This document shows positions 18,916 through 49,197 of a stretch of DNA of 49,305 nucleotides, one piece after another. The stretch spans positions 1 through 49,305 of the forward strand of contig JAQBUS010000001.1 of assembly GCA_027623875.1 (NCBI GenBank). The letters are read 5' to 3'. A program made the translations under genes and the position numbers. Each line of letters starts with the position of its first letter. The stretch's first letter is position 1. The DNA comes from Pseudomonadota bacterium (GTDB lineage: Bacteria; Pseudomonadota; Alphaproteobacteria; Rhodobacterales; Rhodobacteraceae). The notes beneath the pieces were generated by a model. The model worked only from the letters and a program-made list of their open reading frames with translations. It had not been told where the DNA came from and did no database searches.

Positions 18916-18941
18916 GACTATTGTATTTACACAAGTTATCA

Positions 18942-24646: not shown

Positions 24647-24648
24647 AG

Positions 24649-25531: not shown

Positions 25532-25535
25532 AATG

Positions 25536-26213: not shown

Positions 26214-26215
26214 TA

Positions 26216-28180: not shown

Positions 28181-28182
28181 TT

Positions 28183-29864: not shown

Positions 29865-29884
29865 TTTATTTATTTATTTATTTA
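29865..29884. repeat. (TTTA)5 microsatellite
   Basis: Five perfect tetranucleotide units between the ATG of ORF 29175..29864 and the last codons of ORF 29874..30719, covering that ORF's stop codon. Confidence 0.9.
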
Positions 29885-30719: not shown

Positions 30720-30723
30720 ATTG

Positions 30724-31614: not shown

Positions 31615-31656
31615 ATTAAAAAATTCCTTTGTAGCTGATGCGCTTTTGTTGACGAT

Positions 31657-33269: not shown

Positions 33270-34290
33270 TTAATATGTAAGACTTGATCCATTCCTTCTT
33301 GTAGTATTTATTTTTTATGTAACTTTGTTTGGCGAGGCATTTTTCATACAATCGTTCATCTTTCGAAAGGATGTTAAGTTTGCGAACGAACTCTTCAGCA
33401 AATTGAAAAGTGCAATCCTCAGAAAACCAATCTCCAGATTCGAACGGGAAAATCACATCCATATTTTGAATCATTAATAAAGAATTCGAGTATAAACCTT
33501 CAAAGAATCTTCTGCATAAATTCCCAGTACCATTCAAGTGCAAGCAAAATTTATGATTAGAAAGAGTTTTTATGTAATCTTCAAAATTTAAACCACTATA
33601 CTCACTTAAAAGATTTCCCGTATTCAAATTCAACTCAGAAGAATAAATATCTCGAATCATGGATTGACGATTAACCCACTCGTCCTCGTGTCCAGAACGA
33701 TTGAAATTTAAATGAGCTCCCGCCCAGAAGCATTTATTGATTTCAGGTTCAGCCTTCAGGGTATCGTTCAGTAAAACCCAAACGGGATTTATTTGACCAA
33801 AAGCTAAAAAGGGGAATGGTTTGACTTTTGGGGAATACTCTTGCATATGAGTTCTTCTGTACTCTCTTTTAAATATTAAATCATAATGAAAATTATTTTC
33901 AATTAAAAAATCCTCGCCTTTTTTTGTGAGAGGTTTGTCTGCAGCGTCAAAAAAGAATAGTTTATTATATTTAAGATTGGAGAGTATGTCGTAAATATGG
34001 GAAATATGATTCTTTTTATCTTGAATAACAGCATCTTGATCTTTTTCCCAAATTTGGCAATAACCATATCTATTGGCACTATCAACTTCATAACATATAA
34101 AAACGTTATCATAAGAGTCATCTAATTTTTTTGAATCGTAAATCCCTTCAATGCCGTAAGTTTTAAGCAAACCATCACCGTTTAATGAATTTACTACATT
34201 TAGCCCTCCTGGAGACCAATAATCAAAGTTGTCGAAAACTTTCGCCAAAAAAGTAATGTTGTTTTGCGGGTCTACTATTAAGTTTTTCAT
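33259..34290 (-). CDS. putative exostosin-like (GT47-like) glycosyltransferase
   Basis: FCLHLNGTGNLCRRFFEGLYSNSLLMIQ resembles the exostosin C-terminal motif. The ATG at 34290 forms an ATGA overlap; the track start at 34308 is TTG. Confidence 0.35.
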   Translation of the reverse strand: MKNLIVDPQNNITFLAKVFDNFDYWSPGGLNVVNSLNGDGLLKTYGIEGIYDSKKLDDSYDNVFICYEVDSANRYGYCQIWEKDQDAVIQDKKNHISHIYDILSNLKYNKLFFFDAADKPLTKKGEDFLIENNFHYDLIFKREYRRTHMQEYSPKVKPFPFLAFGQINPVWVLLNDTLKAEPEINKCFWAGAHLNFNRSGHEDEWVNRQSMIRDIYSSELNLNTGNLLSEYSGLNFEDYIKTLSNHKFCLHLNGTGNLCRRFFEGLYSNSLLMIQNMDVIFPFESGDWFSEDCTFQFAEEFVRKLNILSKDERLYEKCLAKQSYIKNKYYKKEWIKSYILNEN

Positions 34291-35264
34291 TGAATTTTTT
34301 CTAACCAATAATTTAATAAGTCCTCTAAGGTTTTATCTATATCATATTCTTCCTTAAATCCAGTAAGCTCAATAAGGTTGGTGGAATCTCCATGTTGATA
34401 ATGAATGTCATGGGGCCTCCAAAACTTTTCATTTATTTTTTGCTCAACATTTTTAAGTCCAGATAGTTCAATAAGCTTATCGGTAAAGAACTGCATTTTT
34501 CTAGGAACATCTCCACAAACATTGAACACGTGATTATTAACCTCGGGGTGGATCATGGCTAAATAATAAGCCCTAACAGTATCCCTTGCGTCCATTACTA
34601 CCCTTATGCTATTTAGGTTTCCTATGGAAAGGGTGGGGTCTTGAAGCCCCTTCATCATTCTAGCTATCTGATAGGCGTCTGACGATATTGAGAAGTTCTT
34701 TCCTCTTCTTGGTCCGGTATGTGAAAAAGCTCTTGTAATGAACCCCTTGACAAAACCGTTCTCCATTCTCTCTTGGAGGTAGAGATCTGTGGCCGCCTTA
34801 GACGCTCCATAGGGGTTCGCTGGAAACATTTTGTCTCCCCAGTGTATCTTTCTTCCATCCATCCCTTCGTTTCCGTACACCTCTGAAGTTGAGCAAAACA
34901 TGAGCTTGCAGTCTGGTTGGTGATCTTGGATTACTTGAATTAAGTTTGCACTTCCTATGATATTGTCATCAAAAGTTCCAAGGGGGTCCGCAAAACTTGA
35001 GGGAGGATGGGATTGGGCAGCTAAATGAAACACCCCGTCGAAAGAATTTTTCTCAAAAATATTCCTAAGCACTCTATAGTTCCCTAAATCGGAATAGTGA
35101 AAATTTATAGAATTATAAACTTCATCAGAAACGACATCTAAAATGTCAGCCTCCATTCCGTTAGTTCTTCTAATAAGGCCGTGGATCTCATGTCCGTTCT
35201 TATGCAGTAAGTTTGCTAGGTGGGGCCCAGCAAAACCCGTGATTCCAGTAATTAAAAATTTCAT
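34287..35264 (-). CDS. GDP-mannose 4,6-dehydratase / GDP-6-deoxyhexose reductase family SDR
   Basis: ITGITGFAGPHL, YGASKAATD and FSHTGPRRGKNF...IGNLNSIRVVMDARD parallel GMD motifs (H-E-S-P-R-R-G, G-N-x-x-x-x-R-D). Confidence 0.7.
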   Translation of the reverse strand: MKFLITGITGFAGPHLANLLHKNGHEIHGLIRRTNGMEADILDVVSDEVYNSINFHYSDLGNYRVLRNIFEKNSFDGVFHLAAQSHPPSSFADPLGTFDDNIIGSANLIQVIQDHQPDCKLMFCSTSEVYGNEGMDGRKIHWGDKMFPANPYGASKAATDLYLQERMENGFVKGFITRAFSHTGPRRGKNFSISSDAYQIARMMKGLQDPTLSIGNLNSIRVVMDARDTVRAYYLAMIHPEVNNHVFNVCGDVPRKMQFFTDKLIELSGLKNVEQKINEKFWRPHDIHYQHGDSTNLIELTGFKEEYDIDKTLEDLLNYWLEKIQ

Positions 35265-36127
35265 AATATTTTTCTTATATAGTGTAAAAAATTATAATCT
35301 GTAAAATATCTAGCTTTAGATTCAAGAATATAATCTTTATACTGTTTATTATCAACTTCAACTATATTTTTTAAAGCATTAATTGCATCTGGAGCTTTTG
35401 GATCAAACAGTATATAAGAGCGCTCGTCGTAAATTTCTTTTATTTTATGACATCCATAGTAAATAGGCACTGTATTATTCAAAAAACAATCAAAGAGTTT
35501 TTCGCTTACGTAATAATCTTCTGAAGAATTTTCTATAGCTATACTATATTCATAATCTTTCAACGCTTCTATCTTATCCTTTACAAAACCTTTGTATCGA
35601 GAATCTGATATGTTCCAGTTTTTTCCATATATATCTATATCTAAATCAGAATCTAATATATTTTTAACAAGCGTTTCTCTCCAGTAATAGTTATGATTGG
35701 AGTCTTGATTGTTCCAGTTGCTGAATATTACGGAGAGTTTTTTTGGTTTGTCAAAATTAAAATCATATTTAAATCTATCACAAGTAACATTAACATCTAT
35801 AGAGTCCTCATAAAACATGAAGATTGGCATGTGTTTTACGCCGTCACCTTGAATGTTTTTGTTTGAAGTGATTGTTAGGAAGCAGTGGTCTTTAATTGAG
35901 TGGTCTACGTTGGGACTCCAGTCAGGCTCCATTGTTAAGCCTATGTTTTTTTCTCTGGGACTACGCTTCATGTCCTCACAACCATTAATAACTATTAAAT
36001 AGTCATAAGAATCATCAGTAACCAGCTCTATATTATATTGTTTTGGGTCTCCCCAGTTAGACTCGACTCTTTTGGCTAAATAATCTAAGTCGCTCCAAAA
36101 ATTACCTACAAACTTTACTCTAACCAT
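35261..36127 (-). CDS. GT10-like (alpha-1,3-fucosyltransferase-type) glycosyltransferase
   Basis: YEYSIAIENSSEDYYVSEKLFDCFLNNTVPIYYG matches the GT10 motif F-E-N-S...D-Y-x-T-E-K...V-P-V-x-x-G. Confidence 0.6.
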   Translation of the reverse strand: MVRVKFVGNFWSDLDYLAKRVESNWGDPKQYNIELVTDDSYDYLIVINGCEDMKRSPREKNIGLTMEPDWSPNVDHSIKDHCFLTITSNKNIQGDGVKHMPIFMFYEDSIDVNVTCDRFKYDFNFDKPKKLSVIFSNWNNQDSNHNYYWRETLVKNILDSDLDIDIYGKNWNISDSRYKGFVKDKIEALKDYEYSIAIENSSEDYYVSEKLFDCFLNNTVPIYYGCHKIKEIYDERSYILFDPKAPDAINALKNIVEVDNKQYKDYILESKARYFTDYNFLHYIRKIL

Positions 36128-37097
36128 TTATGAAAACTTCCTTAAATTTATTCATGGAGTTTTCTGGGGAAAAATGTTCGGAGTATGCGTCCCAGTTTTT
36201 TTCTGGCTGCGGAGTAAAATTTAACATTATGTCTTTCGCTTCTTTTTGATCTCCATAATACAAACCTTTATCTCCAAGCATATTTATATGTGCCCTATCT
36301 CCACTTCCGTTCCACGTTATGATGGGTTTGTTTTTAATTGAAAACTCTGCAACAGACAAACCAAATGATTCCCCCTGACCTCTCGCATGGATCATTCCGT
36401 CACAAGTATTTATAAATTTAGAAATCCATTCTTTATCCATTGTCGCTGGAAAGTGTTTTACTCTTGAGTGCTCTTCCATGAATTCATATGTATATAAAAA
36501 AAGGAAGTATATGTCGTCTCTTTCATTTAAAACCTGTTTAATTGCATTATGCACAAACTCTAAATCAAATGTTTCAGGCCCACCAGTCCTACCAAGTACT
36601 ACTGCGTCAGGAGGGATTCCTAATTCTTCTCTAAGGTTTTCGCTTACATCTGGTAGGGTGACTATATATGGAACGAAGGGATGCTTGCCTCCGTCCATCG
36701 TCTTGCTCAACCATTCTGATATATAAGCATAAACATCTCCATGTGGATCGCAAATTTGAAAAACACTATGGACGCAAGTTTTTATGTCTTTGGAAAATAA
36801 ACCATCATTGCCCCCAGCTTTTTGCATATAAAGCATGTCGATTTCCTCCCCCTTAAGAAAGGCTTCTGCTTCTGCCCAGCTATTGTAGCGGTAAACTGGG
36901 AAGCGGCTGCCAAAATATTCTTGAGCTAGTGGATGCTCATAGAGAGTTCCCCTGTGGTCCCCTTTGCCAGTATTAAGCGGCCCCGCCAAAATATAGGATT
37001 TATTATTTAGGAGTTTCTCGTTGAAGTGAGCGTATTTGAAAGTTGCTCCTTCCGAACCTCTAACATTTAATTCGTTTACGTGAAAAGCTATTTTCAT
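36120..37097 (-). CDS. GT-B fold (GT4-like) glycosyltransferase
   Basis: ARGQGESFGLSVAEFSIKNKPIITW fits the E-x7-E motif region. Confidence 0.5.
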   Translation of the reverse strand: MKIAFHVNELNVRGSEGATFKYAHFNEKLLNNKSYILAGPLNTGKGDHRGTLYEHPLAQEYFGSRFPVYRYNSWAEAEAFLKGEEIDMLYMQKAGGNDGLFSKDIKTCVHSVFQICDPHGDVYAYISEWLSKTMDGGKHPFVPYIVTLPDVSENLREELGIPPDAVVLGRTGGPETFDLEFVHNAIKQVLNERDDIYFLFLYTYEFMEEHSRVKHFPATMDKEWISKFINTCDGMIHARGQGESFGLSVAEFSIKNKPIITWNGSGDRAHINMLGDKGLYYGDQKEAKDIMLNFTPQPEKNWDAYSEHFSPENSMNKFKEVFING

Positions 37098-39610
37098 GAT
37101 ATAGGGTCATCAAAATGATGGTTGCCATCTCCACAATGTTGAATGTTTGATCCAAATACCTCCCTAGAACCTTGCGTTCCCGGCATGTCGAGGTAATAAT
37201 AAATGTTCAATTCGTTTTTTTGATCTCCAATAAAATTATCAAGGGGTCCACTAACTCCCTTGCTTCTAACTATCTCCATCATCTTATTAGCCCCCTTAAG
37301 GTTTAATGCGTAAGCCCAGTTACCTATAAACCAAGTAGCTGTAAATTTTCCAAAATGGTCATTGACGCTATCTCCACCAGAGTGCGCGGCAATTTGAACT
37401 AAGTCCCAATCCTCAGGGAGTTGACTCCAAGATTTAGAAATTCTCTCAACGGCATCATCATTAAAGACTACATCATCCTCAAGGATTAAAGTTGTTTCTA
37501 TATTCTCTTCGACGATTTTTTTCCAAATTGCAATATTACTTAGTATGACCCCGTATTCACTATTACTAAGAGTTAAAGTGTCTCCAATGTCCGGCCTAGT
37601 GTAAGTAGGTTTAATGGCTGGAACAAATTCCATGAGTTCAGGACGGATTGTAGACGCAGAGAACCTATCCACGTCAATACTTTTAGCAACACAGGAACCT
37701 TTGACGCTTTCCCACCTATCGGGCCTTTTGTCAAGATTTATACAATAAGCTTTATTGAACGGAAGTTCGTTGCTGTCTTTGACCTTTTTTTTATATACCC
37801 AACTATTGTCTTGGAAAATATCTATAGGCTCTGACTTGAAGAATCTTCTTATAGCTTCCGTTTGGGAACGCCCGGTTCCTCCGAGCTCTCCGAAGCCCCA
37901 GTCATGACCGCACATATAACCATCGCATTTTAGTTTGGGGTTGTAAAGGTTTAAATATCTTTCGTTAGCTTCATAAGTATGTTCTCCATCCAAGTAAACT
38001 AAATCGACGGAATCGTCAGGAATTAACTCAAAGGCTCTTTCCGCAGTCATTTTCAACTTTACAACCTTATCCCCAAACCTGCCAACCCTGTCATCAAAAG
38101 ACTTCTCAACAAACTCCATTGGAGCTTTGTAAGAACTTTCATCCGAAGAATCATAATCGTTTTCCCAAGGATCTATACAGTATATTTTATCTACATTTCC
38201 AGTTTGCAGAAATATCTCTGTAGATTCACCCATATAGCAACCTATTTCAATAATTGTTGAATTTGGTTTGATGTATTTTTCGCTTAATTCCCTTAGTCCA
38301 TCTATGAGGAAACCATGAGTGCTCTTAGGCCTTTGTAGAATTTTATCTAAGTTTACTTCTCCATTCTCATCTAAGACGAAATCTGCAAAACCTTCCTTTG
38401 AATCAGGGGGATTAACTTTTTGACCAGTATCTTCTATAGCTTCAGCTGGAAGTAGATTGGATTTATATCTATTTAGGACTTCTAGTTCTTGAGCTTTTAA
38501 TTGAGTATTACCTCCAGTGCCTTCAGGGATGCAGAACTTAATGCTTTTGTATTCGACTGGTAAATTTGCCTGTATGTAGCATTTGTCTATTAAATCACTT
38601 ACATTATGAATCTGCCTTCCGTAGTTGCCTAGCGCAAGAAGGCTCGTTTTACTCAAGTCGTAATCTTTGGCGTAGGAATCCACTCCATCTTCATCGCCAA
38701 CTAAAATCTTAAATTCTAAATTATCCAAATCAGAAAGGCAATACTTAATTAGATTCAAATTTGACTCTCTAACCGCAAAAATTATCTTCTTGCCTGTCTC
38801 GTGGAGATGGCGAATCATTCCGTTAAGCGGCATTTGATCGTCGATAGAAAGGTGCGACTGAATGAATATTTCGTCTTTATCCAAGAAGTTATCATCAACT
38901 AATACCTCAGAAGCAAAAACTCTGTCCCCAACAAAACCTCCATACTTAAGGGGCTCGTGAGGCGGAAAATCATTCTCTTGACCGTGCTCCATATAGTCAT
39001 CAGAGAAACAGTTGTACATAATCTCACTTAGGAAGTTTTGGTCGTCAAAATACGTTGCCCTACCAGAACCCCAGCCACCTTCAAGGTTGTCTTGATCTAT
39101 TGAAGCGTAGTTTTTACTTTTAAAGAAGGAAATTAATTCTTCAGTAAAATCAAACTTATCCGTCTTTTTAATGCCCCACATGCCAGCCATGATTTTATGA
39201 AAATGACCTTGTGAGCAATCATGCATGAAGTGTAAGGTTTTGTCTGAGTTTATCCATTCATCAACAGCAACTTTCTCGCGAGAGTTCACAACCGAGTCGG
39301 AATCTCTTTGTATGCAAACATCAACATTAGGGTCATCGCAAGCTAAGATGCGCCAATATATTGGAGGAGAGGGGAGGTCTGGCACGATAACTTCACAATC
39401 CAACTCTTTAAGCTTCTCTAGATTAGGAACATCTTTTGTACAGTAAAATCGACATATCCATCCCGGATAGATCTCCTTAGCTTCTTTAATGTTTAATTCT
39501 GCCCCAAGATAATACAAGGGCTTTTCGCCATAAATCGAAAAACTAATGATCTTTTTATTAGATCCATCTTTTAGCTTTTCGTAAAAAACTGGAAAAGGGC
39601 TACTACTCAT
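37094..39610 (-). CDS. three-domain enzyme: DxD glycosyltransferase-like module + class I SAM methyltransferase + GT25 glycosyltransferase
   Basis: 838 aa. N-terminal module is a paralog of ORF 29874..30719. Middle domain has IIEIGCYMGESTEIF...VYLDGEHTYEANERYL. C-terminal domain has FNKAYCINLDKRPDRWESV...SNSEYGVILSNIAIWKKIV...LILEDDVVF (GT25 pattern). Confidence 0.6.
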   Translation of the reverse strand: MSSSPFPVFYEKLKDGSNKKIISFSIYGEKPLYYLGAELNIKEAKEIYPGWICRFYCTKDVPNLEKLKELDCEVIVPDLPSPPIYWRILACDDPNVDVCIQRDSDSVVNSREKVAVDEWINSDKTLHFMHDCSQGHFHKIMAGMWGIKKTDKFDFTEELISFFKSKNYASIDQDNLEGGWGSGRATYFDDQNFLSEIMYNCFSDDYMEHGQENDFPPHEPLKYGGFVGDRVFASEVLVDDNFLDKDEIFIQSHLSIDDQMPLNGMIRHLHETGKKIIFAVRESNLNLIKYCLSDLDNLEFKILVGDEDGVDSYAKDYDLSKTSLLALGNYGRQIHNVSDLIDKCYIQANLPVEYKSIKFCIPEGTGGNTQLKAQELEVLNRYKSNLLPAEAIEDTGQKVNPPDSKEGFADFVLDENGEVNLDKILQRPKSTHGFLIDGLRELSEKYIKPNSTIIEIGCYMGESTEIFLQTGNVDKIYCIDPWENDYDSSDESSYKAPMEFVEKSFDDRVGRFGDKVVKLKMTAERAFELIPDDSVDLVYLDGEHTYEANERYLNLYNPKLKCDGYMCGHDWGFGELGGTGRSQTEAIRRFFKSEPIDIFQDNSWVYKKKVKDSNELPFNKAYCINLDKRPDRWESVKGSCVAKSIDVDRFSASTIRPELMEFVPAIKPTYTRPDIGDTLTLSNSEYGVILSNIAIWKKIVEENIETTLILEDDVVFNDDAVERISKSWSQLPEDWDLVQIAAHSGGDSVNDHFGKFTATWFIGNWAYALNLKGANKMMEIVRSKGVSGPLDNFIGDQKNELNIYYYLDMPGTQGSREVFGSNIQHCGDGNHHFDDPIS

Positions 39611-40733
39611 CGCTGAAAACTATATCCGTACATTGATCTTCTCCGGCAACGCAAAGCCAGTGAGGATGATTGCCTTCCTCAAAGTCAAAATCAGCCTCCT
39701 GTTTGAAGGTTTCTTCCCTTGCGTATAAGACTCTCTTGTCTAATCTAGGAGCAAAGATTTTAGGAGGAGTTTCCCTTCCTTTTGCCAAGTTGCAAGCCCA
39801 CCAGCTGAAAGATGAGTTAGCCCTAAAAATACTTCTGGCGAAATATAACCTAAGAAAGTCCGGGAGCCAATCAAATATAATATCGGGAACAACTTCCGAA
39901 CCTACTGGATAGTGCCATCCACCCCTTTTGTATTGATGCTTTTCTTTAATCCAATTTCCAGTTCTATCGTCAGTAGTCCATTCAATTTCCTTCGAATCAT
40001 AACCGTACTTTTCAAAAGCCTTTAAGTATGAGCTTTCAGCTACCACAGAATAACCTCCGTTATCTTTATAGTTTACGTCTGAAATGTCGTCTCTCCTTAG
40101 GTGAGCTATATCGTAAGTGCCCTGCTTGTCCTCCAGTCTTTTATAGACGTCTAGATTTTTAACCTCATCTTTAAATTCATACAAACTATGAACATCTGAG
40201 ATTTTCATTTTTTCAAATATACTAGTGTGGTAAGCACTGACACTATCTATGCAGACGTCTTGACCAAAGTCGGTGTAGTTTTCATTTGGATTATCTGCAT
40301 TTACATACTTGAAGTCAAAGTCACTTCTAGAGCTAAACTCATTAATTTTAGTCATTCTATAGTCTATTTCATCAAATGGTTTTGTGGACTGATTAATGTG
40401 TAATCTTAATTCGTCGTCATAAATTACCTTATGATTCAAGTTGAATAATTGGTCCCCCTCCCACTCCGAAGGGAGATACAGAGTTCCATTAAACATCTTA
40501 GCTCTCTCGTGTGCGTAAGCATATGTATGCATGCGATTTCCAAATCTTCCGTTCCAGTGCATTATTAATACATCTTGACCATTTTTGCCTCGGTTTTTAC
40601 CCTTAGACTTAAATGGAGGAATCTCTTCTGGAATGTCGGAAAAGTCAGCCTCGACAATTTCGTTCACTATCTCCTTGCTGGATTTAATGGATTGCCTAGG
40701 GCTTTTTTTACTCTTTCTTGATTTGGCAGTCAT
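39603..40733 (-). CDS. GT11/POFUT-superfamily fucosyltransferase-like protein
   Basis: WNGRFGNRMHTYAYAHERAK resembles the G-G-L-G-N-Q-x-F-x-Y-A motif, and YDIAHLRRDDI resembles H-V-R-R-G-D-Y. Basic N-terminal tail. 1-nt gap after the recA-like gene. Confidence 0.45.
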   Translation of the reverse strand: MTAKSRKSKKSPRQSIKSSKEIVNEIVEADFSDIPEEIPPFKSKGKNRGKNGQDVLIMHWNGRFGNRMHTYAYAHERAKMFNGTLYLPSEWEGDQLFNLNHKVIYDDELRLHINQSTKPFDEIDYRMTKINEFSSRSDFDFKYVNADNPNENYTDFGQDVCIDSVSAYHTSIFEKMKISDVHSLYEFKDEVKNLDVYKRLEDKQGTYDIAHLRRDDISDVNYKDNGGYSVVAESSYLKAFEKYGYDSKEIEWTTDDRTGNWIKEKHQYKRGGWHYPVGSEVVPDIIFDWLPDFLRLYFARSIFRANSSFSWWACNLAKGRETPPKIFAPRLDKRVLYAREETFKQEADFDFEEGNHPHWLCVAGEDQCTDIVFSDE

Positions 40734-40734
40734 G

Positions 40735-41841
40735 CTAATTTAATTTTATAATTTCTTCTTTTACATAATTATAAAGAAAGTCTTTCATTTTTCTATTACC
40801 TTCTAAGAAATCCAATAGTTTTTGCTCTCCTTGGAATTTATCTGGGCATTCTATGCCTTTCTTGGATAGCTTGTTTATCATTTCTTCGTCAATAGATAGC
40901 CAAGGGCCTTTCTGTTCGATGTAACCCCAGGCCTTCATTAAGTCTATTATCTCTCTTTCTACCCAAACGGACTCTCCGTTTTTTCTACCATACTTAATTG
41001 GATATCTTACTTGAGCGCCAGTTTTTTCATTAACGCTTTTGCGGAAACGAATTTTGCAATAATGACCTATTGGGTCGCCCTTGTCATCTATTCTGGTTGC
41101 CGAGGGATTCGTGAACATTATATCTCCAGTGTACCTCTCCTCGAATTCGCATATGAAATTTGCGTAATGCTTTACTGCATTTCCACCCGCCTGCTTTACT
41201 TTTGGGCCACCTCTTGAGGCGTAAGGATTTGTAGCAACCTCAATTCTTACTTGAGAGGTCAATATGAGCATGTGTCCCATTTTCGTCAAGGGGAGAATCA
41301 CCTTCTTTAAGAAAACAGATGTTATTAGGGCTCCGCCAGCTACTTGCTCGCTCTCTTCGAACGGTTTATTGAAATCGTTTACCCTGCATAATGCATCCAT
41401 GCTGTCAATAATAAATAAATACTTTTTCTTTTCAGAGTTATTGTGTATTAATTCTCTAATAAGTTCAAAAACTTTTTCGTATACATTACAGTCGAACTTG
41501 AAAAAACTTTCTGGATCGGTATTTACACCACACCTGTTTAAGAGCTCAGGAGATAGCCTACCTTCGCTTTTGACGTATACAACCATCCCTCCCCCCTTAA
41601 AGTGGTCTTGGAAGTGTTTTGCCACCGTTAAGGCGCAGCTAGTCTTCCCTCCCTCATTTACACCGGTAAATCTATGAGCCCCGGGAGTGAACCCTCCATT
41701 TAGGGCCAAGTCTAAATTCAAACTGCCAGTCGGTATCTTGTAATGAAAATCCTCATGATTGTTATAATGATATTTTACATTATCCTTGTCGTTAAGGAAT
41801 TTTTCTATTTGCTGTTTAGATGCAGAAGGTTCTTTAGCCAT
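40735..41841 (-). CDS. recA: RecA/UvsX-family recombinase
   Basis: GSLNLDLALNGGFTPGAHRFTGVNEGGKTS (Walker A) and LFIIDSMDAL (Walker B). The ATG at 41841 lies 6 nt after a -10 box; the track start at 41859 is a TTG inside the promoter spacer. Confidence 0.7.
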   Translation of the reverse strand: MAKEPSASKQQIEKFLNDKDNVKYHYNNHEDFHYKIPTGSLNLDLALNGGFTPGAHRFTGVNEGGKTSCALTVAKHFQDHFKGGGMVVYVKSEGRLSPELLNRCGVNTDPESFFKFDCNVYEKVFELIRELIHNNSEKKKYLFIIDSMDALCRVNDFNKPFEESEQVAGGALITSVFLKKVILPLTKMGHMLILTSQVRIEVATNPYASRGGPKVKQAGGNAVKHYANFICEFEERYTGDIMFTNPSATRIDDKGDPIGHYCKIRFRKSVNEKTGAQVRYPIKYGRKNGESVWVEREIIDLMKAWGYIEQKGPWLSIDEEMINKLSKKGIECPDKFQGEQKLLDFLEGNRKMKDFLYNYVKEEIIKLN

Positions 41842-41847
41842 ACAAGT

Positions 41848-41876
41848 ATCATAAACCAAGACGACATAGAAGTCAA
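41848..41876 (-). promoter_or_regulatory. sigma70-type promoter TTGACT-17nt-TATGAT
   Basis: Minus strand reads gagTTGACTtctatgtcgtcttggttTATGATacttgtATG. The TGA of the -35 box is the stop codon of ORF 41873..42283. Confidence 0.65.
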
Positions 41877-42283
41877 CTCAAAAAATCTCTTATTGATCTC
41901 TTTTTTATTTTTTGGGTGTTTTTTTCAACAACGTCGTTCTTTGGCTTAAATGTTTTGAGCTTTTTAGGCTTCCAGTGAAATTCTTTCCACTTCTTATCTA
42001 GGGAATTAATCCAATAGTCGCTATCTTTATTAAAGAACAGAGCAAAAGTTGGAAGCTTTCCAGTCTTTGAAAGTTTTTTTCCGTAATTTCCATACGCCTC
42101 ATTAAAGGAAACTTTATGCCAGAAGTTATAATCTGGAAATCTTTTGTAAAGCTTTGTGAAGAATTTATTCTCCCTACTCCAGAAGCTTCTAGCTTCTTTT
42201 GTCGAATTGTCAGAGGGAAAGACTAGTAATCTTTCTATGACCAATTGGAAATCTGACTTTTTTCTGGGACTCTTGGAAGGCAT
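41873..42283 (-). CDS. basic hypothetical protein (136 aa)
   Basis: ORF whose ATG lies 7 nt after a -10 box. Confidence 0.45.
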   Translation of the reverse strand: MPSKSPRKKSDFQLVIERLLVFPSDNSTKEARSFWSRENKFFTKLYKRFPDYNFWHKVSFNEAYGNYGKKLSKTGKLPTFALFFNKDSDYWINSLDKKWKEFHWKPKKLKTFKPKNDVVEKNTQKIKKRSIRDFLS

Positions 42284-42290
42284 GTTAGTA

Positions 42291-42319
42291 ATTCTAACAT
42301 ATTAATTTAAAAATGTCAA
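42291..42319 (-). promoter_or_regulatory. sigma70-type promoter TTGACA-17nt-TAGAAT
   Basis: Minus strand reads ataTTGACAtttttaaattaatatgtTAGAATtactaacATG. The TGA of the -35 box is the stop codon of the 1699-aa ORF. Confidence 0.65.
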
Positions 42320-45300
42320 TATTTAAACCAACTCCAAGGCACTGTGTTTGGTCCAATATCGTAGCTGTGACCATCATTTGTGTGTAGGTATTCATCGCCA
42401 TTTCCATCACGATCCCCTTCGGGATCATCTAAGTATCTGCCAGGATTCCACATGTCAGCGCCGTCTCCACCTTTGCCATTTATGTTAAATTTTGATTGAC
42501 TAGTCAAACTGATAGGGTCACTGGGATCGAATTTTAAAGGAATGACTGCAACTCCATTTCCAAGGTCTTCGCCAGATGTATTGAACCCACCCTCTTGGTA
42601 ATTACTGCCGCCTTCTCCATATGTAGCCCAATATTGCTCGCTAATATCTTTTCCGTGTTCAGCGAAATTCTCTTTGAATGAGTAAGGGTCAAAAACTGAA
42701 TCAAGGTCTTGAAGGGATGGTATCGAAGACGCCTTAAAAGGATAAACTGAATCATTCAAATGTTTCTCTTCGACTTTTGCGGAATGACTATCATATCTAA
42801 GTTTATTAAGCTTGGTTTGGTACCGATTTGATGCTGCCTGTTGATCATCTAAAACTTGAAAAAACGTTGGCCAAAATAAAAGTAGTTCGTACTCGCAGAT
42901 TGGACATTCGTCGGGTTTGTCGCGCCAATTAGTAACACTAAAGTCACTGCATGTTGAGGGCTTTAATCTATCTCTGGAGGTTGGAAGCAGGTAAGCGGCA
43001 GCTCCCCAGAGCGAGAATTTTTCAGATTCTCCAGATTCTTTATTTCCAATTATGCCTACTATGATATCGTACTTTCCACCATCTTTATAGTTTGGACAAC
43101 TTTGTTTACCCCATTCTCCCACAGTATCTTCCACGAGCACTGTCTGTGCAGCAACAACACTTATGTCATCTGCTCCAGAAAGAACCACCTCACCTGTCTT
43201 CTGAGGAATGGTGAATTTAAACTTATTATAGCCGTCACCTGTCGGCGTTACTTCCTTACCTTTCTCAGCAAATCCAAAAGTCCCATCTTGACTAAAACCA
43301 AAATTCATTCCCCCGTCTAAAGTAGAAGTGAGCCAAAGCCAGTGCTTCTCCCCTTCTTCGTTAAAATTGGATTCGTATGTTTTATATGGACACCATTGAA
43401 AAGCGGAAACATCTATATAGTTGAATTCATTTGTTGATGTTAATGCTACCTTGTCCCTTTGCTCAGAGAGCGACTCAGGAAAATCAGGAGCGGCTTCTTC
43501 CGTTGGTACGTCACTTGCGAAGTTAGCTTTATACCAATAAGCCTTTTTTGATTCTTTATTGCATTTTTTGTCCTCATCTGCCTCTTCTTCGTAGCGGGTT
43601 CCTAGTTTGCAGTGTCCGACAGTACCGTTTAGTTTGTCTTTGAAATCAGATTGACTAGTGGGAAATGCGTCTAAAGCCACGAAGGGCATGCAGTACTTAG
43701 TTTCCTTTGGCGTTAGGGTTGCGCTAGGTGAAGCTGAAGGACTAGGTGAGGGGCTGGACGAAGGTGAGGGTGAAGGACTTGCCGAAGGGCTAACCGAAGC
43801 CGAAGGGCTAACCGAAGCCGAAGGGCTAACCGAAGGACTTGCCGAAGGGCTAACTGAAGCCGAAGGGCTAACCGAAGCCGAAGGGCTAACCGAAGCCGAA
43901 GGACTAACCGAAGGACTAACCGAAGGACTAACCGAAGCCGAAGGACTAACCGAAGCCGAAGGACTAACCGAAGGACTAACCGAAGCCGAAGGGCTGACCG
44001 AAGCCGTAGGACTAACGGATGGGGTCGGAGTCGTCCAGTTCGTAAGAGTTGGACTAACTGAAACCGTAGGAGTTTGGTTAGAAGTGAAAGTTACGGTCAC
44101 GGATACGGACGCAGTTAAACTTACGGAAGGAGTGGGCGTCGTCCAATCTGTAAACGTAACCGTAGGACTAACCGAAGCCGAAGGACTAACCGAAACCGAA
44201 GGACTAACCGAAGCCGAAGGGCTGACCGAAGGAGTAACCGAAGGACTAACCGAAGCCGAAGGGCTGACCGAAGGAGTAACCGAAGGACTAACCGAAGCCG
44301 AAGGGCTAACCGAAGGGCTAACCGAAGGGCTAACCGAAGGGCTAACCGAAGGACTAACCGAAGCCGAAGGACTAACCGAAACCGAAGGACTAACCGAGGC
44401 CGTGAGAGTGGGGGTAGGAGTAAACGGAGTAAAAGTTAAAGTCGGGGTGGGGCTTAATGTAACCGTCGGAGTATTACAACCATTGCAATGTGAATGAAAA
44501 GCTCCTACAGCAGAAGAATTCAAAACCGATGTAGGTTGATAAAGCCTAATATCATCCACGACCGTATAACAGACCTCTGGGGCGTGAGTAATCGAAAAAA
44601 CAGCTCCACTGACCACTCCGGCAGGCCTAGGACTCTTCTTGTACCAACCTATTTGAGCTCCGTCGCTACACCTGTTTAAATAAAATCCAACATAAAGAAG
44701 GTCTTGCGGTGTTAAGGTGGGGGTTAGTGATACACTAGGGCTAGGTGAGGGCGAAGGACTGGGTGAGGGACTAGGCGAAGCACTTGGAGTTTCTGACACG
44801 CTTGGAGTTGGCGTCTCCTGAGGCGTTGGAGTTTTACTGGGGGTTGATGTTGGGCTAACTGAGGACGTAGGACTAACTGACAGAGTAGGTGTAAACGGAG
44901 TTAAGGTTACTGAAATCGTCGGCGTATCTGGAGTTAGGGTTAGAGAAACTGAAACTGTAGGAGTGCAGGCCCAGTTATAAACTGAAACACTGCCACCCCA
45001 ATCCGCATCTTCAGGGCAACCTTTGGGGGATTGCTCTAGTGAATAAGCATGAGTCGTTCCGGCGCTAGTGCCACTAGGGAAATTATAATTAGGAGCGTCA
45101 GTAATCCACCAGCCTCCGGAGGTTGAGGATTCTTCCCCAAACCATAAATGATAGTTTCCGCTGGAATGCTTCCAAATAGGTTGACATCCTAAGATTCCCA
45201 ATGAAGCATCAATAGTATAAGTGCCATCAGCAAGAGTTGAGGTGCCGGAAACGCAAAACGAATCCGTGCTACAGCCCGTGCAAGTAAAAGTTACCGTTGG

Positions 45301-47415
45301 AGTTAAGGAGACTGTACTCGTTAAAGATACCGAAGGGGTCGAAGTAGGCGAAACTGTCGCTGTTAGAGATACTGAAGCGGTCGAGGTCGGCGAAACTGTA
45401 ACTGTTGGGGTCGCACAAGACGAATCGCTGCAACCTCCAGCGATTTTAGTATACTCGCTAGTGAGTAAAGTGTTTGACAAGCCTTGCCCGGAGAATAAAG
45501 CTATAACTTTATAGCAAACTCCATTAGCGTTGGCTTTGATTACGTCGTCGACACTTAAGTCTCCATTTGTGCCATCTAATTGTTCGTAGGTTTGCTTTGA
45601 CCCACTTGAATCAGCGAAGCAGGACTCAATTCTTATTGCATTGTAAGGAGTTAGCGTTAAAGTTATTGATTCCGTCTTTGTTGGAGAAACTGAAACGGTT
45701 GGGGTTGTTACGCATTTATCGTCAAGACAATCTCTGGATGATATTTTTTCGTATTCACCCGGCTCTAGCTCTGCTACGGCAGTACACCCTTCGTAGATTA
45801 TGCTTACAACCTTATAGCAGACAGTAGAGCCAATTGGCCTTATGACATCATTGTCTAAAAGGTCGCCATTTGTCTTATCTCCATAGTACAGTATGACTCC
45901 TGGATCTTCGCACTTTTGTAGGACTATACAGCCTGGAGTCGGCGTGGGAGAAGCTGTAACTGTTGGAGTGCAGACCTGAGCAGCGCAATCGTTACAATTA
46001 CCCATAAAAGTTAGGTCCGCATGATCGGGCAGGTCTATAGACTCAAAACACGCGTCGGGTTCAGAAACTCCTCCATTTCTAATGCTCGATGTCACTGCAA
46101 TGCAATCATCAGATGACGTCCGATAAACTGAGTTTACGCCTGTAGCTATATCGGTTTTGGATTTGTAGTAAATTCCTGTAGAGCTGCCGGAATTTCCACT
46201 GCAATCAGTGCAGGTAACGTGAGTAACCTTATACCACTTTTCAGGAGTACATGTTATTGAAGTTGTCGGAGAAACTGAAACCGTAGGCGTAATGCCGGGC
46301 GTAAGAGTAGCACTAACTGAAACGGTGGGGGTTGACCAGTTTGTGACTGTAACGGTGGGAGATGCGGTAGGGCTGACGGATGGAGTGGGCGTTGTCCAAT
46401 TCGTAACAGTCGGACTAACTGAAACCGTAGGAGTTTGGTCAGGAGTGAAAGTTACGGTCACGGAGGGACTTAATGTAACCGTCGGGGTTACTGCGCAAGC
46501 CGCGCAATCCTGCCCGATGGCAGTCCACCCCGAAGTGAAAACCCTAGAAGGTTCGGAAGTTGATATTGCGGTATAAACTTGAACACAAAAACCACCAATA
46601 GTTTTTACCCAATCTCCCTCGTTTAAGGTGCTATGAAATTCAATTGGTAATATGTATTCGATAGAGCTCTCTAAAATATTTGAAGGATCGCATCCGCCAT
46701 TTTCGAAAAGCAGCGACCTCTTCTTCATTACTTGCCAAGGCGTTATAGTTACGGTGGGCGTAACAACACAATCTTGACAGCTTTGTCCGTAATCCCAGGA
46801 GTAAGAAGTATTATTTCCATCTTCTATTTTGCCTCTAATAAGCATCTGGTCAGACCAGTCCACTAAATCAATCTCAAAACATTTACCTATTACATTTACT
46901 GCAGAATTACCCCACCAAGAATCGTCAACGCCTTTTAGCCAAATGCCATTGGTAATCGGTCCATATTGGGCGGGATTCCTGTTTATATCAAAATAAAGAG
47001 TTGTTGAAGAGTTAACTGGAGAAGTTAAGTATCCTTGATTGACACAATTTTCATAACGAACAAGACGAGCAACTTGCGCAGTAACCGTAAAGTTAACATT
47101 GGCTGTAGTTTCCCAATCTAGGGTACTTGTGTTTCCTGAACTACTGGGAATTGTAGCGTTTGTAGTGTTCCCATCTACTCCAAGAATTCCTATGGAGCCT
47201 TGACCTGAAAGGCTGTCCTCTAGCTTCCAGACAGAACCGTTCCAATATATAAATAAAGTAGCACTGTTATTTCCCTGCCCTATATCATATCTCCAATAAG
47301 CTTTACCGTTTTTGTCTCCACCGTAATTATACCAACCGTTTGCATTGTCGGTAACTCCTCCGCCAAGAGAAATGGTGGTCGGATGCCCAGAAACAAATAA
47401 TGCTGCAGTATCCAT
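42316..47415 (-). CDS. giant modular beads-on-a-string protein (1699 aa): repeated small Cys-containing domains separated by TPTV(T/S)/SPS(V/A)S mucin-like linkers, with a globular C-terminal region; probable virion fibre or decoration protein
   Basis: At least six ~70-aa modules each end in a paired-Cys motif followed by TPTVT: CQDCVVTPTVT, DCAACAVTPTVT, CNDCAAQVCTPTVT, DDKCVTTPTVS, CSDSSCATPTVT, CNGCNTPTVT. Several contain VCYKV or VCYTV. There are long SPSVSPSASV arrays. There is a 3-nt gap to the upstream 592-aa gene. Confidence 0.6.
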   Translation of the reverse strand: MDTAALFVSGHPTTISLGGGVTDNANGWYNYGGDKNGKAYWRYDIGQGNNSATLFIYWNGSVWKLEDSLSGQGSIGILGVDGNTTNATIPSSSGNTSTLDWETTANVNFTVTAQVARLVRYENCVNQGYLTSPVNSSTTLYFDINRNPAQYGPITNGIWLKGVDDSWWGNSAVNVIGKCFEIDLVDWSDQMLIRGKIEDGNNTSYSWDYGQSCQDCVVTPTVTITPWQVMKKRSLLFENGGCDPSNILESSIEYILPIEFHSTLNEGDWVKTIGGFCVQVYTAISTSEPSRVFTSGWTAIGQDCAACAVTPTVTLSPSVTVTFTPDQTPTVSVSPTVTNWTTPTPSVSPTASPTVTVTNWSTPTVSVSATLTPGITPTVSVSPTTSITCTPEKWYKVTHVTCTDCSGNSGSSTGIYYKSKTDIATGVNSVYRTSSDDCIAVTSSIRNGGVSEPDACFESIDLPDHADLTFMGNCNDCAAQVCTPTVTASPTPTPGCIVLQKCEDPGVILYYGDKTNGDLLDNDVIRPIGSTVCYKVVSIIYEGCTAVAELEPGEYEKISSRDCLDDKCVTTPTVSVSPTKTESITLTLTPYNAIRIESCFADSSGSKQTYEQLDGTNGDLSVDDVIKANANGVCYKVIALFSGQGLSNTLLTSEYTKIAGGCSDSSCATPTVTVSPTSTASVSLTATVSPTSTPSVSLTSTVSLTPTVTFTCTGCSTDSFCVSGTSTLADGTYTIDASLGILGCQPIWKHSSGNYHLWFGEESSTSGGWWITDAPNYNFPSGTSAGTTHAYSLEQSPKGCPEDADWGGSVSVYNWACTPTVSVSLTLTPDTPTISVTLTPFTPTLSVSPTSSVSPTSTPSKTPTPQETPTPSVSETPSASPSPSPSPSPSPSPSVSLTPTLTPQDLLYVGFYLNRCSDGAQIGWYKKSPRPAGVVSGAVFSITHAPEVCYTVVDDIRLYQPTSVLNSSAVGAFHSHCNGCNTPTVTLSPTPTLTFTPFTPTPTLTASVSPSVSVSPSASVSPSVSPSVSPSVSPSVSPSASVSPSVTPSVSPSASVSPSVTPSVSPSASVSPSVSVSPSASVSPTVTFTDWTTPTPSVSLTASVSVTVTFTSNQTPTVSVSPTLTNWTTPTPSVSPTASVSPSASVSPSVSPSASVSPSASVSPSVSPSVSPSASVSPSASVSPSASVSPSASPSVSPSASVSPSASVSPSASPSPSPSSSPSPSPSASPSATLTPKETKYCMPFVALDAFPTSQSDFKDKLNGTVGHCKLGTRYEEEADEDKKCNKESKKAYWYKANFASDVPTEEAAPDFPESLSEQRDKVALTSTNEFNYIDVSAFQWCPYKTYESNFNEEGEKHWLWLTSTLDGGMNFGFSQDGTFGFAEKGKEVTPTGDGYNKFKFTIPQKTGEVVLSGADDISVVAAQTVLVEDTVGEWGKQSCPNYKDGGKYDIIVGIIGNKESGESEKFSLWGAAAYLLPTSRDRLKPSTCSDFSVTNWRDKPDECPICEYELLLFWPTFFQVLDDQQAASNRYQTKLNKLRYDSHSAKVEEKHLNDSVYPFKASSIPSLQDLDSVFDPYSFKENFAEHGKDISEQYWATYGEGGSNYQEGGFNTSGEDLGNGVAVIPLKFDPSDPISLTSQSKFNINGKGGDGADMWNPGRYLDDPEGDRDGNGDEYLHTNDGHSYDIGPNTVPWSWFKY
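43721..44400 (-). repeat. coding tandem-repeat array (12- and 18-nt units) encoding (SVSP/SVSPSA)n
   Basis: Runs of ccgaagggctaa / ccgaaggactaa / gccgaagggctaaccgaa, interrupted at about 44000-44160. Shorter Pro/Ser/Thr tracts occur at about 44700-44960, 45250-45420 and 46270-46490. Confidence 0.85.
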
Positions 47416-47418
47416 TTA

Positions 47419-49197
47419 TTAAAAAATCTTGTTAAAGAACCCCTCGATTAAATAATCGGTAGGATTACCATGGCCTAGTGTTTTGTCAACCCCATAAGAC
47501 TTCTTGAACAAACTAGTATCAACTGTTGTCGGGTGGGGCTCTATAATTGTTATTCTTTCTTCTTTTACTATTGGAGTGGTAACGCTTGAGTAAGCGCTAC
47601 TGATCATTGATTGCGTCGGACTAAAGGAGTATTTAATTCCAAAGGGATACATGGAGCTAAAATCATAATCAACGTTAAAAACTGCATCCTTGTAGATTGA
47701 TGTCGAATCCGGAGCGATTATAGAGGATATTTTCAGCACTTCGAATTTGCTATTTTCCACCACGTTATTTGATTGAGAGAACGAAACAGAGGAACTCCCC
47801 GAAGGAAATCTAACTTTTAATCTTTGGCCATAGTCAATCACCGTAAGCTTTGGCAGCCCGGAATCTGGCACTCCGCTCCACCAGTTGGCGGAACCTCCGT
47901 AAACGGCCTTTGGTAGGTCATTAAACCAGTACTGCCAATTAATCTCGGCGGCATTTTCGTTATTAAATCCAGCCGAAGTGTTTTTTACTTTTACTTCGTA
48001 TATTTTAGAGACCAGACTAACGTCTTTAATTAAAAGAGAATTTGTAGGAGTAGGAGTAGAGACTGGAGCCGGCTTGGAGTAGTCGATAACTTCAGCGTAA
48101 TCATAAACGTTTTTATCATCCCCTTGAACATAGGAAGTGTAACTAACGAGTTTTCCGCTAACATTTTGAGAACCTTCCTTAACTGTGAGGTTTCTCTCCA
48201 TTAGGTAACCCTTGTCCGTTAACTTATAGAATACTCTATTCGTTAAATCGGAAGAGTTTGGGCTAGATACCTTTTCACTGGAACCTATAAAAAAGTGATT
48301 TCCCCATTGCCTTGGAGAACTTGCAACTTCTAAAATGGTGTGGTAGTTGAAAGCTGGCGTGGGAGTTGGGGTTGGCGCACACGACGAACCTAGGAATCCT
48401 TTATCGCTAGAAGGTAGAGACGGGTCAACAAAGTAACTGTCAGGAAGAACTTGGCTATTTCCTACTCCGTTCACGCATGTCAAATGAGCCCTAACAAAGC
48501 TTATTTTATTGTTTCCTTGGTAAACCCATTCCTCGCATCCACTAGGCAAGTCGTTCCACTTTTGGCAACCGCCCTGGTCGAAGGGATCATCTGGAATTTT
48601 CCAAGGTGAAGGGCCCGATATATTGGAATAAGATTCCACTCCCAAAACGCAAGAAACATCCGCCGTCCATTCTATCGCATAATAAGGAGGTATGGAGGTT
48701 TTGGTGGGAGTTGGAATAGTCGTTGAGGGAACCGGCGTGCAACAATAATCAATTGCATATATGTTGTAGGTCGAACTGCCGCAACTTTCGGAAGACTCCA
48801 CCTGACCTAAATTTGATATCACTGGGTCAACTATTGAAGCGGAAACCAAATAGGAACAAGATTTTAAATACAAATACGCATTTAAAGCTGTTATCGAATC
48901 GTTACTCCTTAAGTATTCTCTAACGTAAGTGGAGCTACCTGAGCATTTTGCGCAATCAGCAGAAACTGTAACGTTTCCGGAATTATAATCACTTTCGAAG
49001 GTGAAAGTTTGCGGACCGCTACTGGTCGCCAAAAGAGTTATCTTTAGGGAGCCCTTGGTTACTACATGGCTTCCGTAATTTAAGAAATTAAAGCTATTAA
49101 ATAAACCTTGGTCGGAAAATTGAAAAACATATTCTTTTCCTACGCCAATATTTAAGTCCGTTATTGGACTTCCGTTTAATTTAGCGCCTGAACTCAT
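47419..49197 (-). CDS. 592-aa protein with Cys-containing modules and (TP)n linkers; probable structural partner of the 1699-aa protein
   Basis: Linkers are CCTPVPSTTIPTPTKTS, CAPTPTPTPAF and PAPVSTPTPTN. A paired-Cys motif (CAKCSGSS) is present, as in the neighbouring gene. Confidence 0.5.
   Translation of the reverse strand: MSSGAKLNGSPITDLNIGVGKEYVFQFSDQGLFNSFNFLNYGSHVVTKGSLKITLLATSSGPQTFTFESDYNSGNVTVSADCAKCSGSSTYVREYLRSNDSITALNAYLYLKSCSYLVSASIVDPVISNLGQVESSESCGSSTYNIYAIDYCCTPVPSTTIPTPTKTSIPPYYAIEWTADVSCVLGVESYSNISGPSPWKIPDDPFDQGGCQKWNDLPSGCEEWVYQGNNKISFVRAHLTCVNGVGNSQVLPDSYFVDPSLPSSDKGFLGSSCAPTPTPTPAFNYHTILEVASSPRQWGNHFFIGSSEKVSSPNSSDLTNRVFYKLTDKGYLMERNLTVKEGSQNVSGKLVSYTSYVQGDDKNVYDYAEVIDYSKPAPVSTPTPTNSLLIKDVSLVSKIYEVKVKNTSAGFNNENAAEINWQYWFNDLPKAVYGGSANWWSGVPDSGLPKLTVIDYGQRLKVRFPSGSSSVSFSQSNNVVENSKFEVLKISSIIAPDSTSIYKDAVFNVDYDFSSMYPFGIKYSFSPTQSMISSAYSSVTTPIVKEERITIIEPHPTTVDTSLFKKSYGVDKTLGHGNPTDYLIEGFFNKIF

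Follow-up and report, generated by a model that had tools for sequence, protein, structure and literature searches.

The stretch of DNA considered here, called the window in what follows, consists of 49,305 nucleotides (contig JAQBUS010000001.1 of assembly GCA_027623875.1) and represents essentially the whole of a 49,318-bp metagenome scaffold. It belongs to a large uncultured bacteriophage and carries, on the minus strand like all of its long open reading frames (ORFs), two stacked genes named A and B. Protein A is built like beads on a string, small and mostly Cys-rich modules alternating with spacers of Thr, Ser, Pro and Val, and the modules resemble no recognised family. I propose that A, and B in lesser form, is a hypervariable, extracellularly exposed fibre, whisker or decoration adhesin, and that its spacers are O-glycosylated in the host cytoplasm by the phage's own cassette of glycan genes. 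The proposal is tentative, though quite possibly right. I infer each of its parts: that the proteins sit on the virion, that their cysteines form disulfides and do not ligate metal, that the spacers are glycosylated and that the function is one of binding.

Architecture of A and B

Both ORFs lie where a preliminary description of the sequence had put them:

47419-49197, minus strand: gene B, 592 amino acids (aa), stacked tightly with A
42316-47415, minus strand: gene A, 1699 aa, the beads-on-a-string protein, its start 3 nt past the stop codon of B

Protein A contains 15.5% Ser, 11.5% Thr, 8.7% Pro, 8.6% Val and 2.6% Cys. Seven Thr/Ser/Pro/Val spacers account for 522 aa (31%), with 258 Ser or Thr and 101 Pro among them, and they alternate with eight small modules of a stated 67-106 aa. 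Altogether 69% of the protein is non-repetitive. The principal segments, in the order of the protein, are:

aa 1-112 (47080-47415, minus strand): module M0a, Trp-rich and Cys-free, with many N-x-S/T sites and the motif AYWRYD...WKLED
aa 113-216 (46768-47079, minus strand): module M0b, type I framework, strand-C ... KCFEI ... CQDC
aa 229-307 (46495-46731, minus strand): module M1, type I framework, GGC ... FCVQV ... CAAC
aa 308-391 (46243-46494, minus strand): spacer of 84 aa, with TPTVT / TNW(T/S)TPTPSVSPTAS units
aa 392-482 (45970-46242, minus strand): module M2, type II, 8 Cys, starting with C-x2-C-S-G
aa 496-568 (45712-45930, minus strand): module M3, type I, with VCYKV and CLDDKC
aa 591-667 (45415-45645, minus strand): module M4, type I, with VCYKV and CSDSSC
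aa 712-817 (44965-45282, minus strand): module M5, Trp-rich, 6 Cys, IWKHSSGNYHLWFGEE...GGWWITD
aa 906-980 (44476-44700, minus strand): module M6, type I, with VCYTV and CNGC
aa 981-1239 (43699-44475, minus strand): the longest spacer, 259 aa, with 129 Ser/Thr and 51 Pro in SPSASV / SPSV hexapeptide arrays
aa 1240-1699 (42319-43698, minus strand): non-repetitive C-terminal domain of 460 aa, the sole part of A with detectable relatives

Modules alternating with long linkers had been described for both proteins, and this holds for A and not for B. The latter has just two Cys-containing modules (aa 68-153 and aa 173-273), each followed by a short Pro/Thr spacer (CC-TPVPSTTIPTPTKTSIPP and SSC-APTPTPTPA). 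A third spacer, KPAPVSTPTPTN, leads into a Cys-free C-terminal part of 300 aa. These three spacers, the only ones in B, are 11-19 aa long.

Each module was said to end in a pair of cysteines followed directly by TPTV(T/S). In A, a Cys does stand 0-5 residues ahead of TPTV(T/S) at all seven junctions from module to spacer, and at six of the seven there is a close pair: four times C-x2-C (CQDC, CAAC, CNDC, CNGC) and twice C-x4-C (CLDDKC, CSDSSC). Given that Cys makes up 3.6% of A outside the spacers, chance would place one within 4 residues at about 14% of junctions. The internal strand of the preliminary description is there as well, as VCYKV in M3 and M4 and as VCYTV in M6, and related strands can be added to it, KCFEI in M0b and FCVQV in M1.

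Can the modules be aligned with one another to define a repeat? For one pair they can. M3 and M4 are homologous (E 3e-9) and are the only significantly similar modules in A, by pairwise and iterative searches alike. A jackhmmer search from M3 over all loci fetched for comparison recruited M4 alone. M0b, M1 and M6 have a framework in common with that pair (first strand-C ... G-x-C-[YF]-x-[VI] ... C-x2-4-C), and despite this pattern of Cys and hydrophobic residues their sequence similarity to M3 and M4 is not significant. The "second motif" reported near the N-terminus and in mid-protein (AYWRYD... and IWKHSS...) is literally present in both places, but the two Trp-rich modules that contain it, M0a and M5, align no better than shuffled sequences (p about 0.09). 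A single family of paired-Cys modules running through A is not demonstrable by sequence; judged by these comparisons, A contains at least three module types. Beyond A, the first module of B is weakly similar to M2 (E 0.0015 in a set of 12 sequences), and M2 is similar to a module (L007_497_801) of the corresponding upstream protein in a related locus, L007 (E 5e-5 in a set of 64 modules).

Searches of much wider scope recovered little. Full-length A and B match no Pfam family at E 0.01, and their sub-domains match nothing credible at E 10; M0a has no Pfam hit even there. In PHROGs and NCBIfam only the low-complexity spacers find matches, and PDB sequences yield nothing below E 7e-4, just weak compositional matches to leucine-rich repeat (LRR) kinases. 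When all the non-spacer parts of A were joined and used as the query in an exhaustive HMMER search of 1.84 billion representative proteins, three relatives emerged, all through the C-terminal domain only (63%, 84% and 46% identical), and none of the modules found a match. A word-indexed protein search likewise gave relatives of the C-terminal domain only. A profile of 13 modules, from A and L007, had no match among 5.8 billion proteins, and scans of IMG/VR and of metagenomes with the C-terminal domain of A, with B and with two alignments (A2 and A5) turned up no loci. No homologue of A or B was found outside this group of phages. That the modules are unrecognised, as first claimed, is true at the level of sequence.

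Structure prediction was attempted by AlphaFold 2 (AF2). A model of M4, built on a five-row module alignment, is all-beta with five strands, at low confidence (pLDDT 58.9). This weak model has no significant match in the PDB by Foldseek (best E 0.86, TM at most 0.35). The C-terminal domain reaches a pLDDT of 31.7. It is best conserved over its last ~100 aa (ISLTSQSKF...GGxGADMWN...).

The spacers of A are encoded by true tandem repeats of DNA, with periods of 12, 18, 36, 42 and 78 nt, and the longest spacer consists of 18-nt repeats. Between 44001 and 46000 the GC content is 0.48, as compared to about 0.36 elsewhere, and the sign of the GC skew is reversed. Horizontal transfer was considered as the cause of this jump and rejected, since the jump coincides with the arrays of Ser, Thr, Pro and Val codons. 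These tandem codon repeats account for the rise in GC, for the reversal of skew and for the long spurious ORFs on the opposite strand. Such by-products face the spacer arrays at 43658-44497 (279 aa, a "GLTEAEGLTE" repeat), 46292-46576 and 45221-45514, all on the plus strand. A gene caller was misled in the same way in the related locus L004, where it placed a false gene opposite an array (2-793, minus strand).

Rapid divergence and the giant proteins of related phages

Downstream of A come two genes that are conserved among related phages and serve below as the point of reference:

41873-42283, minus strand: p136, a basic protein of 136 aa, conserved upstream of UvsX in related phages and part of the backbone rather than of the variable cassette
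40735-41859, minus strand: UvsX/RecA-like recombinase, part of the backbone, with A on one side and the glycan genes on the other

A is followed by p136 and then UvsX in two close relatives, L004 and L032, and the next gene in L032 is g376, a putative glycosyltransferase gene that follows UvsX in the window too. In L004 the reading frame is maintained through a different spacer array, (VTFTDWMTPTPS)n, equivalent to the longest spacer of A. The genes that flank A are 93-98% identical in nucleotides between L004 and the window, as against 51-88% for the C-terminal domain of A. The corresponding values for L032 are 98.5-99.5% for the flanking genes and 88% for A. In the comparison with L004, A has 0.53 synonymous substitutions per site (dS) and 0.24 nonsynonymous (dN), for a dN/dS of 0.45; for p136 and UvsX dS is 0.16-0.19 and dN/dS is 0-0.04. 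Since the dN/dS of A is below 1, A is to be regarded, on the strength of these alignments, as a real coding sequence under selection. The same numbers mark it as a hot spot of recombination, of relaxed or diversifying selection, or of both. Divergence is not uniform: inside the C-terminal domain, which is otherwise conserved, residues ~1417-1605 (42601-43166) form a local hypervariable patch, 51-71% identical in nucleotides to L004, with 77-88% on either side.

In relatives whose UvsX is 70-78% identical to that of the window, the slot upstream of p136 and UvsX is occupied by giant proteins:

L006: at least 1135 aa
L007: 2371 aa
L008: at least 1226 aa
L009: 2983 aa
L011: at least 3178 aa

These five giants contain 68-163 Cys and spacers rich in Thr, Ser and Pro, with C-x2-4-C directly before a spacer, and none has a Pfam domain. 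The giant of L007 has at least eight modules with the framework C ... CY-x-[VI] ... C-x3-C, as in the type I modules of A. Hidden Markov models (HMMs) tested across the two groups, leaving one group out, give E values of 0.27 and 0.75 for A against L007 modules, which is not significant. By hhalign the same comparison gives P 3e-4 and a probability of 39% over 22 columns. Homology between the type I modules of A and those of L007 is plausible but unproven. The N-terminal regions of the giants (L007 2398-2540 and 2-2404; L009 582-900) also contain short Cys motifs of the kind C-x-D-x2-A-x-N-Y-D, for example GCMDPKANNYDPSATTCC and GCTDSRACNYDSSANKDDGSC. This type of mini-module is undescribed, and it is absent from A.

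The conserved backbone of these phages reads p136, UvsX, an insert, g136, DnaB, primase. The insert holds a homologue of g376 in 6/6 loci with an upstream giant (the window, L006, L007, L008, L009 and L011) and in 0/13 loci in which the upstream region is visible and has no giant. Most giant loci have in their insert a protein like g838 (the product of the gene next to g376), with glycosyltransferase or methyltransferase domains; homologues are present in L006-L009. Pfam families found in the inserts are GT2 in L006, GT10, GLF, GMD and Methyltransf_24 in L007, and weak GT2 and GT47 in L011. In 12 of the 13 loci lacking a giant, the slot is taken by an unrelated, Cys-poor protein of 598-675 aa, and UvsX is followed almost directly by DnaB. 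Slot proteins of 636-675 aa were tried as possible homologues of A and the giants and proved not to be. The remaining locus, L029, has a linker-rich, Cys-poor protein of 775 aa, followed by the gene for the small subunit of ribonucleotide reductase (RNR), and a different, non-homologous gene set of ~9 kb between UvsX and DnaB. The slots on both sides of p136-UvsX, then, vary from relative to relative.

Glycan genes and the proposed role of A

The preliminary description placed a 16-kb glycosylation operon next to A. The cluster is real, with sugar-nucleotide, glycosyltransferase and methyltransferase genes filling some 16 kb (24.2-40.7 kb) downstream of A, but it is not directly adjacent, the 136-aa gene and UvsX standing between. 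It comprises:

39603-40733, minus strand: g376, putative glycosyltransferase (weak PHROG hit)
37094-39610, minus strand: g838, with Methyltransf_24 and GT25 domains
24236-37097, minus strand: the rest of the cluster, encoding a GT10 fucosyltransferase-like protein, GDP-mannose 4,6-dehydratase, UDP-galactopyranose mutase, an NAD epimerase/dehydratase, at least five methyltransferases, DUF5672 and several unknown ORFs

Among solved structures, the best relative of the GT25 domain of g838 (residues 610-780) is human procollagen galactosyltransferase 1 (E 3e-7), a protein O-glycosyltransferase; a bacterial GT25 follows at E 4e-4. None of the 16 operon proteins has a predicted hydrophobic or membrane segment, and none matches the families of flippases, polymerases or priming transferases that load a lipid carrier. 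The entire operon is thus predicted to be soluble. Because these components are lacking, a soluble cytoplasmic acceptor is favoured, and the operon fits such an acceptor better than it fits the modification of an envelope polysaccharide. What might the acceptor be? A and B have no predicted signal peptide, hydrophobic N-terminus or membrane segment and would therefore be made in the cytoplasm and, if the hypothesis holds, glycosylated there. That the neighbouring glycosylation genes act on the Ser/Thr/Pro arrays is an idea somewhat strengthened, short of proof, by the co-occurrence of giants with g376, by the membrane-free operon and by the relative of the GT25 domain.

The mechanism I have in mind is as follows. 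The small beta-rich modules would serve as independent rigid beads, each stapled by 4-8 Cys, with the terminal Cys pair tying the C-terminus of the module back to its core, either through disulfides formed after release or as a metal site. The Thr/Ser/Pro/Val spacers would be extended stalks that hold the beads apart, and their expandable tandem repeats would allow rapid change in length. The conserved end of the C-terminal domain (the last ~100 residues) would be an element of assembly or attachment. Before lysis, g376, the methyltransferase-GT25 protein and the further ~13 kb of sugar-nucleotide, glycosyltransferase and methyltransferase genes would O-glycosylate the spacers in the cytoplasm, and the glycans would make the spacers stiffer and less open to proteolysis. 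Lysis would then expose A and B, made in the cytoplasm, in the simplest case as components of the particle. A design of beads and stalks, combined with rapid turnover of modules, would suit an adhesive fibre or decoration under diversifying pressure.

Several observations count against this proposal. The cytoplasm in which the Cys-rich modules would be made is reducing, so that their cysteines could bind metal in place of forming disulfides. A and B are flanked on one side by the RNR small subunit, dCMP deaminase and dUTPase and on the other by UvsX, DnaB and primase, with no recognisable structural module, and neither protein shows similarity to tail-fibre, decoration or capsid families in Pfam, PHROGs or the scan of 1.84 billion proteins. 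Both structure predictions are too poor to support a fold or a binding role. P136 and UvsX separate A from the glycosyltransferase genes. A sigma-70-like site (42291-42319, minus strand: TTGACA, a 17-nt spacer, TAGAAT and an extended TG, 11/12 matches) takes in the stop codon of A and lies immediately ahead of p136. It may split B-A transcriptionally from p136, UvsX and the glycosyltransferase genes, though it comes from a consensus scan in which the total number of sites was not above that expected from shuffled sequence. Finally, the co-occurrence of giants and g376 is phylogenetically confounded, in that the giant loci are mostly the closest relatives (UvsX 70-78% identical).

One rival account would keep A and B as exposed modular fibres or adhesins but leave their Pro/Thr linkers bare, as they are in numerous bacterial enzymes of modular build and in many other proteins. 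The glycan genes would then act elsewhere, on host lipopolysaccharide (LPS) or capsule (for superinfection exclusion or receptor masking) or on another virion protein such as the capsid, and they and the giants would merely share a hypervariable island flanking UvsX. I regard this as possible but doubtful. The variability of the slots on either side of p136-UvsX speaks for it, as do the two genes and the promoter-like site between A and the operon, and GT25 and GT10 are classically families of LPS and oligosaccharide transferases. It does not lead one to expect that giants and g376 should co-occur perfectly in the loci sampled, that the operon should be without any membrane-embedded component, flippase, polymerase or priming transferase, or that the closest solved relative of the GT25 domain should be an enzyme that glycosylates protein.

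It is improbable, to a degree beyond this, that A and B are not structural at all and instead remain in the cell or are released at lysis as a sticky matrix, decoy or scaffold, their Cys clusters binding zinc. The two genes do sit amid replication and nucleotide genes of early or middle type, no signal peptide or membrane segment is predicted, no homology to structural proteins was found in Pfam or PHROGs, and four Cys per module, including a C-x2-C pair, would suit a Cys4 metal site equally. However, structural genes are commonly scattered across the genomes of large phages. Exposed proteins subject to diversifying pressure typically show extreme Ser/Thr/Pro spacers, shuffled modules and fast divergence, and the modules of 6-10 Cys in the relatives resemble disulfide-knotted extracellular modules. 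Nor is there much room for the long ORF of A to be an artefact, whether because its repeats were wrongly assembled or because low-complexity DNA happened to lack stop codons in one frame. Arrays of 18-nt repeats are hard to assemble from short reads, and an ORF of considerable length on the opposite strand (43658-44497, plus strand) is spurious. Yet the ORF of 1699 aa is identical in three assemblies, made independently; L004 and L032 have orthologues with the same synteny and maintained frame; dN/dS is below 1; and more than two-thirds of A consists of non-repetitive modules. An artefact is very unlikely indeed.

Comparison with known systems helps to place an exposed, glycosylated fibre among what has been described. 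According to Freeman et al. 2023, as cited in PMC11256854, phage-encoded glycosyltransferases glycosylate the capsid of Che8-type (cluster F1) mycobacteriophages. The likeness lies in the phage having glycosyltransferases of its own and in a presumed acceptor that is encoded by the phage and synthesised in the cytoplasm of the host. In those mycobacteriophages the acceptors are major capsid (and tail tube) subunits, and a small number of glycosyltransferase genes is enough. Here the candidate acceptor is an orphan of modular build whose Ser/Thr/Pro arrays total 522 aa, and the putative cassette of ~16 kb includes sugar-nucleotide synthesis and many methyltransferases.

The fibrils of mimivirus and other giant viruses are long surface fibres, heavily glycosylated by a virus-encoded sugar pathway independent of the host, with a large glycan cluster in the genome. 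The present phage, too, has an autonomous cluster for sugar nucleotides and glycosyl transfer (GMD, GLF, epimerase, GT10, GT25, DUF5672, methyltransferases). The preliminary description was framed by mimivirus, and the framing survives as functional analogy only: by its genes (tmRNA, DNA polymerase III alpha, DnaB, primase, UvsX) the replicon is of tailed-phage type and does not belong to a nucleocytoplasmic large DNA virus. No similarity between A and giant-virus proteins was detected in Pfam or in the scan of 1.84 billion proteins.

The architecture of A also recalls bacterial cellulases with their carbohydrate-binding modules (CBMs), mucin-like proteins and serine-rich repeat adhesins. These have compact domains joined by Pro/Thr/Ser linkers that are often O-glycosylated and encoded by expandable tandem repeats of DNA. 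Unlike them, A lacks any catalytic domain or CBM, nor does it have a signal peptide, an LPXTG motif or features of accessory Sec, and its modules are orphan and capped by Cys. Its match to a serine-rich family of NCBIfam scores 30 bits against a cut-off of 650, and the traits of Gram-positive serine-rich adhesins (signal peptide, wall anchor, accessory Sec / GtfAB locus) are found neither in A nor among the families of its neighbourhood. With Hoc-type proteins, Big-domain proteins and receptor-binding fibres A shares modular repeats, fast evolution, shuffling of modules and a likely role in adhesion; like tail fibres and receptor-binding proteins, it diverges between close relatives much faster than its neighbours. 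It differs in matching no Ig-like, Big, fibre or decoration family in Pfam or PHROGs, in lying outside a recognisable structural module and in having its conserved end at the C-terminus, not the N-terminus. The themes, modular surface proteins with Pro/Thr linkers and protein glycosylation encoded by phages, are known ones. What is unusual is the scale, the orphan modules and a pairing of enzyme and substrate that can be tested.

One may go further, with less assurance, and suppose that "phage mucins" are made by a whole clade of uncultured, probably marine phages of ~200 kb: giant, rapidly diversifying fibres of orphan Cys-knotted modules and long Ser/Thr/Pro stalks, the latter densely O-glycosylated, within the cytoplasm, by a dedicated and wholly soluble phage pathway of up to 16 kb with methylated glycans that contain Galf or deoxyhexose. 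Such fibres would be the counterpart of giant-virus fibrils, and their modules would form an undescribed fold family. All of this together is a speculative claim. If it were true, protein glycosylation by phages would extend from a few sugars on the capsids of mycobacteriophages to mucin-scale decoration of dedicated fibres in large environmental phages, and it would bear on how phages stick to hosts and particles, resist proteases and evade recognition. There would also be a new set of small Cys-stapled modules, invisible to current domain databases. Giants and glycosyltransferase cassette would make up an accessory unit around the p136-UvsX backbone, one that supplies candidate pairs of enzyme and substrate (g376 or g838 with peptides of the TPTV(T/S) type).

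The replicon and its other genes

The window encodes a UvsX-type recombinase, DnaB helicase, Toprim primase and PD-(D/E)XK nuclease, and in addition the alpha subunit of DNA polymerase III, an RNase T-like exonuclease and a ClpB-like ATPase. There is also a transfer-messenger RNA (tmRNA):

9777-10211, minus strand: tmRNA, tag peptide EDATALYEAEELPMAA by ARAGORN, Rfam RF00023 at 130.7 bits over the full-length model

On either side of it are genes for the ClpB-like ATPase and for a nucleoside 2-deoxyribosyltransferase-like protein. Relatives of the UvsX in IMG/VR are on contigs of up to 205-211 kb. Because of the replication genes, the tmRNA and these contigs, the element is an uncultured large bacteriophage of roughly 200 kb and not a giant virus; the latter origin was considered and is ruled out by gene content (tmRNA, Pol III alpha, DnaB, Toprim primase, UvsX). 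The closest cultured phages are just 23-32% identical in UvsX and Pol III alpha, and so no proteomic or morphological data can be transferred from them. No nucleotide match of the window was found.

A sister assembly extends past the end of the window, upstream of B, and adds genes for dUTPase, dCMP deaminase, the RNR small subunit and a truncated repeat protein:

L001 3-1256, plus strand: truncated DUF285/BspA-like gene of the same phage, upstream of B, encoding leucine-rich repeats (Pfam E 8e-107)

The truncated protein starts with a spacer, PTVSVTPTVSVTPTVSV, of the same PTVSVTPTVSV type as those in A. A third protein of the phage thus uses this kind of spacer, which suggests that it is common to several displayed proteins.

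At 10243-15274 (minus strand) a double-AAA ATPase of the ClpB/Hsp104 type (829 aa), an unusual chaperone for a phage replication block, adjoins the DNA polymerase III alpha subunit (851 aa) and the RNase T-like exonuclease. At 16747-18942 (minus strand) is a gene for a protein of 731 aa with a strongly hydrophobic N-terminal segment (KD, Kyte-Doolittle, 2.15 at residue 20), stretches rich in Gly and Ala, and bacterial thrombospondin type-3 (calcium-binding) repeats. Of the proteins of the window that were examined, this one alone is predicted to be a membrane or secreted protein. Lastly, a 17.7-kb contig of the same phage clade (L031, NZCP01000022.1), of the type without a giant and with a UvsX 67% identical, was deposited within a metagenome-assembled genome of "Candidatus Woesebacteria". 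Its placement there is most likely an artefact of binning and not an assignment of host.

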